From Shigella phage SHSML-52-1, in the sequence record KX130865: a DNA stretch of 64,000 nt; one strand, written 5' to 3'. A program made the position numbers and the translations under genes. Each line of letters begins with the position of its first letter. Position 1 is the first letter of the stretch. The notes beneath the pieces were generated by a model, which saw only the letters and a list, made by a program, of their open reading frames with translations, was not told the origin of the DNA and did not search any database. Shown in pieces: positions 22,058 to 22,743 of this stretch.

Positions 22058-22288
22058 ATGTCTACTGAAACTATCGAAAAACTGCAGTCTGAAATCGTTA
22101 CTCTGAAATCTCGCATTCTTGATACTCAAGACCAAGCAGCTGCTATCCAGCAAGAATCTCAACAACTTGGTAGTGCTCTTGCTAAAATCGCTAATCTGGT
22201 TGGTATCACCGGCGAATCAGTTAAGATTGATGACCTGGTAGAAGCAGTACGTGAACTTGTTAAAGCTGAAACCACAGAAGAAGAATAA
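22058..22288 (+). CDS. 57A: tail fibre assembly chaperone gp57A
   Basis: 76 aa coiled coil ([18 protein letters not shown]...) matching T4 gp57A. Confidence 0.85.
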
Positions 22289-22743
22289 TGAAATTTGAGG
22301 ACTTTTCACAAGGCCTCTACGTCGCAGCTAAATTTTCAGAATTAACACTTGATGCGCTGGAAGACCTCCAGCGCAAATTAAGAATTCCTAATCCAGTACC
22401 ACGTGAAAAGCTTCATTCAACAATTTGTTATTCACGTGTAAACATACCATATACTACATCTAGTGGTAGTTATTCTGTTGCCGAATCAGGACACTTTGAG
22501 GTATGGAAAACTGACGACGGCGCTGTACTGGTTTTAGTTCTTGATTCCGAATATCTTAGATGTCGTCATCAGTATGCACGAGCTTTAGGTGCTACTCATG
22601 ATTTCGACGACTACACTCCACATATAACGTTATCATATAACGTTGGCCAACTATCATTCAGTGGTGATGTAGCTATTCCGGTTATTCTCGACCGTGAATA
22701 CAAAGAACCCTTAAAACTAGATTGGGCCGAAGATCTAAAATAA
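22288..22743 (+). CDS. 57B: gp57B / Acb1-type 2H phosphoesterase (anti-CBASS cyclic nucleotide phosphodiesterase in T4)
   Basis: 151 aa; two H-x-T/S motifs (HSTI, HITL) typical of the 2H phosphoesterase fold; position directly after 57A as in T4. Confidence 0.75.

Follow-up and report, generated by a model that had tools for sequence, protein, structure and literature searches.

An intact orthologue of T4 gene 57B, predicted to encode a functional Acb1 enzyme, beside the internal-protein genes of Shigella phage SHSML-52-1

The window analysed here is a stretch of 64,000 nucleotides from Shigella phage SHSML-52-1 (sequence record KX130865), in which the genes around acb1 are ordered as gp2, the DNA-end protector (19757), gp3 (20675), gp1, the dNMP kinase (21319), 57A (22058), 57B or acb1 (22288) and ipI (22821). 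The same order is found in T4, from 76885 down to 73591 of its record. The acb1 gene follows 57A immediately and on the same strand within the gp3-gp1-57A-57B block, and is the positional orthologue of T4 57B. The earlier note had placed the gene at the T4 57B position and directly upstream of an IPI-like gene, and both statements hold, since the order from gp2 to ipI mirrors that of T4 and a spacer of 77 nt separates acb1 from a downstream gene whose product matches the Pfam family IPI_T4 (Table 1). The block is also present in the distant Straboviridae Acj9, Aeromonas 50AhydR13PP, KP15 and Metamorpho, and 3' of it the gene content differs among these phages.

Table 1. Features of the acb1 locus, with positions counted from the first nucleotide of the window
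Feature	Position	Strand	Evidence
Gene 57A homologue, tail-fibre assembly chaperone	22058..22288	+	Pfam GP57 E=5.9e-23; phrog_1002
acb1 / gene 57B orthologue, Acb1-family 2H phosphoesterase, 151 aa	22288..22743 (including stop)	+	Pfam, PDB, identity to T4
First catalytic H-x-T motif, H43-S44-T45	22414..22422	+	Equals T4 H44/T46; sequence read directly
Second catalytic H-x-T motif, H112-I113-T114	22621..22629	+	Equals T4 H113/T115; sequence read directly
Sigma-70/T4-early-like promoter match, TTTACA-17-TACTAT, extended TG	22758..22786	+	Consensus scan
10-bp hairpin, AGGATGATGG / CTATCATCCT	22766..22792	+	RNA fold
ipI homologue, internal protein I	22821..23108	+	Pfam IPI_T4 E=1.4e-50; T4 IPI 88%; PDB 2JUB E=6e-42
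Second internal-head-protein gene after ipI	23172..23480	+	phrog_2667

In the ORF listing acb1 is intact, with an ATG at 22288, a TAA stop and 151 codons for amino acids. An in-frame stop lies 5' of the gene, and the ATG at 22288 is the first start possible after it. This ATG shares one base with the TAA of the 57A homologue, the junction reading GAATAATGAAA, and the coordinates of the ORF are those given in the earlier note. A consensus scan of 21200..23600 found no promoter directly before acb1. The overlap of stop and start codons, together with the absence of a promoter comparable to the one before ipI, suggests co-expression with 57A; the two genes probably share a transcript, with translation of acb1 coupled to that of 57A. 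The same scan returned 9 sites where 7.5 were expected, a count that is uninformative, and the only sites in a sensible position are the one before ipI and one before the next internal-protein gene.

The hexamers of the promoter match before ipI are conserved in T4, and its -10 element is overlapped by the spacer hairpin, which folds at -16.1 kcal/mol (z=-3.6, for the 86-nt spacer folded). At the same place (about 7900..7930 on the minus strand of the T4 stretch compared) T4 carries a 13-bp hairpin whose stem differs in sequence (z=-4.4), and at this site structure rather than sequence seems to have been kept. The hairpin could be an element for the end or the stability of the 57A-57B transcript, or it could regulate the ipI promoter. 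Taken together, the candidate spacer elements (22758..22792) may mark both the 3' limit of the 57A-acb1 unit and an independent start for ipI.

The acb1 product matches the Pfam family Acb1 (PF23474) from end to end, at E=1.3e-58 and with a score of 197.3 bits, where the gathering cutoff is 27 bits, over positions 1-144 of the 144 in the profile. Its best match among solved structures is the Acb1 of Erwinia phage FBB1 (7T26/7T27; E=1.1e-58 for 7T26), with 63% identity over the whole crystallised chain, and its alignment with T4 57B (NP_049750.1) has 129 of 151 residues identical (85%; 92% similar) and no gaps. The full-length Pfam match, the match to 7T26 and the identity to T4 57B are all far beyond chance. 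The earlier note had read the gene as a phosphodiesterase of the 57B/Acb1 type, and membership in the Acb1 family through PF23474 and 7T26 bears this out. A homologue was found by tblastn in 1,468 of 50,697 phage records, in at least 136 GenBank phage records the encoded protein is 99% identical or more, and the exact matches include Escherichia coli O157 typing phage 6 and phage AV118. The gene is an ordinary, intact and already known orthologue of T4 57B/Acb1, found with every residue the same in many sequenced phages.

The two H-x-T/S motifs reported for the 151-aa product from a first reading of the sequence are present, as H43-S-T45 and H112-I-T114. They hold two of the five histidines of the protein, and two or more Hx[ST] motifs also occur in 14% of shuffles that preserve its composition. 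We therefore rejected the motif pair as stand-alone evidence for Acb1, and the identification rests on homology. A single-sequence AlphaFold2 prediction was of no use (mean pLDDT 40.2, pTM 0.29), and we infer the fold from the 63% identity over the 7T26 chain and from the conserved lid segment; the product is expected to adopt a compact 2H fold with a C-terminal lid.

LigT and CPDase enzymes share the 2H fold and the HxT/HxT tetrad with Acb1, which itself cleaves by way of a 2',3'-cyclic phosphate. On these grounds the product could be taken for a LigT-like 2'-5' RNA ligase, or for a generic RNA 2',3'-cyclic phosphodiesterase with RNA ends as its substrate (as in the repair or processing of tRNA), and not for a nuclease of cyclic oligonucleotides. 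PHROG 755 is named 'RNA ligase', RefSeq labels T4 57B and many homologues in the same way, and the annotators of Metamorpho report an HHpred match to the RNA 2',3'-cyclic phosphodiesterase 5H7E. However, the label stems from similarity at the superfamily level and not from an assay, and the sole biochemistry on an orthologue is the cleavage of cyclic oligonucleotides, accompanied by an anti-CBASS phenotype. No Pfam family other than Acb1 matches the product at E<=0.01, and an NCBIfam scan at E<=0.1 returned nothing, including no LigT or ThpR model; this empty scan, meaning no curated prokaryotic family, fits a phage-specific protein. The product has also kept every feature specific to the Acb1 ligand: the stacking aromatics, the Glu that reads adenine and the Trp of the lid. 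Given the lack of a LigT/ThpR match, the Acb1-specific residues kept and the orthologue biochemistry, we reject an RNA ligase identity, and we regard activity on RNA ends as extremely improbable. The 'RNA ligase' label that is widespread in databases for this gene is misleading.

The functional residues of Acb1 were defined, from structure or by mutation, by Hobbs et al. 2022 (PMC9117128), who also solved the FBB1 structure. In T4 numbering they are the HxT/HxT tetrad (H44, T46, H113 and T115), the stacking aromatics (Y12, W74, F107 and W147), the Glu that reads the adenine N6 (E141) and a C-terminal lid formed by residues 145-152, and H44A mutants show the catalytic role of the first motif in T4 Acb1 (PMC9117128). 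Residue mapping finds all nine of the individually defined residues kept at n-1 in the window's protein, with the catalytic tetrad complete (H43, T45, H112 and T114) and the nucleobase-stacking aromatics (Y11, W73, F106 and W146) and the adenine-specific E140 present. In an alignment of nine Acb1 sequences that extends to 29% identity and covers T4, FBB1, Klebsiella phages Metamorpho and KP15, Acinetobacter phage Acj9, Aeromonas phage 50AhydR13PP, Pseudomonas phage Milchi and Vibrio phage phiKT1024, the tetrad is invariant, as are Y11 and E140. The 22 substitutions relative to T4 57B are mostly conservative and none falls on the nine functional residues, and the lid segment LDWAEDLK has a single conservative D-to-E change. 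At the DNA level the two genes are 75% identical, with a dN of 0.13, a dS of about 1.8 (near saturation) and a dN/dS of 0.07, values that point clearly to purifying selection on the protein.

We predict, with high confidence, that the product of this ORF is a functional Acb1 (gene 57B) enzyme. The analysis directly supports its place in the Acb1 family, its orthology to T4 57B, the integrity of its catalytic and substrate-binding residues, purifying selection and the conservation of gene order. In its substrates, its chemistry and its effect on CBASS, we expect this allele to behave as the work on T4 and FBB1 would predict. In that work T4 Acb1 and nine further homologues were all active and cleaved both cGAMP and cAAA, expression of Acb1 stopped the activation of CBASS effectors and the cell death that CBASS brings about, and for plaque assays on CBASS hosts a T4 delta-acb1 mutant was constructed (PMC9117128). 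These results agree with the statement of the earlier note that the T4 57B product degrades the cyclic oligonucleotide signals of CBASS. T4 does not need acb1 on K-12, but on a CBASS host the gene becomes depleted in a T4 transposon library. Published T4 transcriptomics place the gene in the middle/late class, and we take the timing of its expression here from T4.

By analogy with these enzymes, the product would be a small 2H phosphoesterase that needs no metal and is made in the course of infection. Its U-shaped pocket, closed by the C-terminal lid, would take adenosine-containing cyclic di- and trinucleotides (among them 3'3'-cGAMP, cUA, cAAA/cA3 and c-di-AMP isomers). With the lid clamping the cyclic nucleotide and the adenosine held in a strained state, the His/Thr tetrad would cut the 3'-5' bond on the 3' side of the adenosine by acid-base catalysis, giving a 2',3'-cyclic phosphate intermediate and then a linear product with a 3'-phosphate. 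Once the second messenger that the host CD-NTase makes was depleted, the CBASS effectors would stay inactive and the phage could complete its cycle.

The substrate range might differ in detail from that of T4 Acb1, from which the allele differs at 22 positions. A stronger form of this idea is that the Acb1-family enzyme has been selected chiefly against signals other than those of CBASS (such as the cA3 of type III CRISPR), or that its range has shifted so as to avoid triggering Panoptes. T4 Acb1 also degrades cA3 and both 2'3'- and 3'3'-c-di-AMP, and its plasmid-borne expression can set off the Panoptes guard system. In T4 infection, knockdown of acb1 partly relieved restriction by Panoptes in one study and deletion of the gene had no effect in another, and T4-like phages, for example Bas43 and the escapers of Bas35, avoid Panoptes through inactivation of acb1. 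Such pressure and the divergence from T4, at 75% DNA identity, speak for a shift, but the nine ligand-contacting and catalytic residues are unchanged, the substitutions lie elsewhere, and the gene is intact and so has not been lost under pressure of the Panoptes type. In addition, the nine further homologues assayed all cleaved cGAMP and cAAA, and no divergent specificity has been reported for close Acb1 homologues. We therefore consider a shifted range very unlikely. Equally speculative is a Mosigvirus-type allele tuned to spare the Panoptes decoys (2'3'-c-di-AMP or cA3) and yet to break down the signals of CBASS; it would be a natural resolution of the dilemma between countering CBASS and provoking Panoptes, and we give it little credence, as all known ligand contacts are unchanged and no sequence feature points to such tuning. 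For a functional Acb1 of the T4 kind, the intact copy leads us to expect the same trade-off between anti-CBASS activity and Panoptes.

The phage is T4-like and belongs to the Mosigvirus group. The 2.8 kb around acb1 (21300..24100) are 98-99% identical to LF82-41, which is classified as Mosigvirus, and to ATK47/ATK48 and Mizar, and the closest relatives (LF82-41, ATK47 and Shf125875) represent the Mosigvirus group and not Tequatrovirus. The authors of the Mizar record already annotate the gene as 'anti-CBASS Acb1-like protein', and the public names for acb1 conflict, with 'RNA ligase', 'hypothetical protein' and 'phosphodiesterase' also in use.

Downstream of acb1, the T4 counterpart of the ipI product is an injected protein that inhibits the restriction enzyme GmrSD, and Hobbs et al. 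offer for T4 the same argument, that the neighbourhood is one of anti-defence genes (PMC9117128). To treat the surroundings of acb1 as an anti-defence locus, and so to raise the prior for neighbouring genes of unknown function, is a reasonable heuristic, in which ipI is the one neighbour with a demonstrated function. The ORFs at 23550..24906, 25159..25500 and 25887..26351 have no Pfam match, and their PHROG matches are all to families of 'unknown function'. As the small ORFs that follow the second internal-head-protein gene match only such families, the heuristic is without specific support in the window.

An N-terminus resembling the capsid-targeting sequence of T4 internal proteins, MK[TSM]Y.EF, begins six ORFs of 86-154 aa on the plus strand, at 22821, 23172, 25887, 34385, 35145 and 35470. 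They fall into two clusters, the first beside acb1 and the second close to denV and the lysozyme gene. Only the ORF at 22821 is ipI by its Pfam match (IPI_T4); that at 23172 has no Pfam match and hits a PHROG annotated as 'internal head protein', that at 25887 hits one of unknown function, the ORF at 35470 has only a sub-threshold match to Pfam DUF7412 (E=0.005), and those at 34385 and 35145 have no Pfam match. We view the six as a diversified group of proteins that are putatively injected.

The stretch 24986..25140 (+) holds only two tRNA genes, Met-CAT and Arg-TCT, on which ARAGORN and Rfam agree, and a scan of the whole window at Rfam gathering level found nothing beyond them. The corresponding locus in T4 has eight tRNAs, two small stable RNAs and segB, and that in Mizar has three tRNAs and a gene resembling a homing endonuclease, which indicates that the region is variable among close relatives.

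A homologue of T4 vs.4/Acb2 (88 aa) is found at 37313..37579 (+), with matches to PF24729 (Acb2/Tad1 hairpin; E=4.4e-18) and to PDB 7UQ2 'Vs.4' (E=9.8e-31); its start codon is an ATG within ORF 37145..37579 of the listing. As in T4, acb1 and acb2 are both carried, here about 15 kb apart. These findings confirm the standard anti-CBASS toolkit of T4-type phages, an Acb1 nuclease and an Acb2 sponge, and add little beyond correct annotation. The intact acb1 predicts resistance to hosts whose CBASS signals through cGAMP or cAAA and, as published studies of T4-like phages suggest, a possible sensitivity to guard systems of the Panoptes type, and acb1 status can help to predict host range for candidates in phage therapy.

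Compared with known systems, the window's protein is closest to T4 57B/Acb1, to which it aligns over 151 aa without gaps, with the same tetrad, aromatics, Glu and lid Trp, and with its gene likewise between 57A and ipI. It differs in an N-terminus that is shorter by one residue (MKFED.., where T4 has MMEFKD..), and its phage differs in belonging to the Mosigvirus group instead of Tequatrovirus and in having an added ip7-like internal-protein gene after ipI. With the FBB1 Acb1 (7T26 apo, 7T27 with 3'3'-cGAMP) it shares the catalytic tetrad and E140 as well as identity along the whole chain, but FBB1 has Phe in place of the Trp of T4 and the window (W73) and a one-residue insertion after position 78. 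The LigT/ThpR 2H phosphoesterases resemble it in expected fold class, in paired H-x-T/S motifs and in 2',3'-cyclic phosphate chemistry, whereas Acb1 has its own ligand pocket and a C-terminal lid for cyclic di- and trinucleotides. The Acb2 (T4 vs.4) sponge, whose homologue the window also carries, depletes CBASS signals as Acb1 does, but it has an unrelated fold and acts by sequestration and not by hydrolysis.
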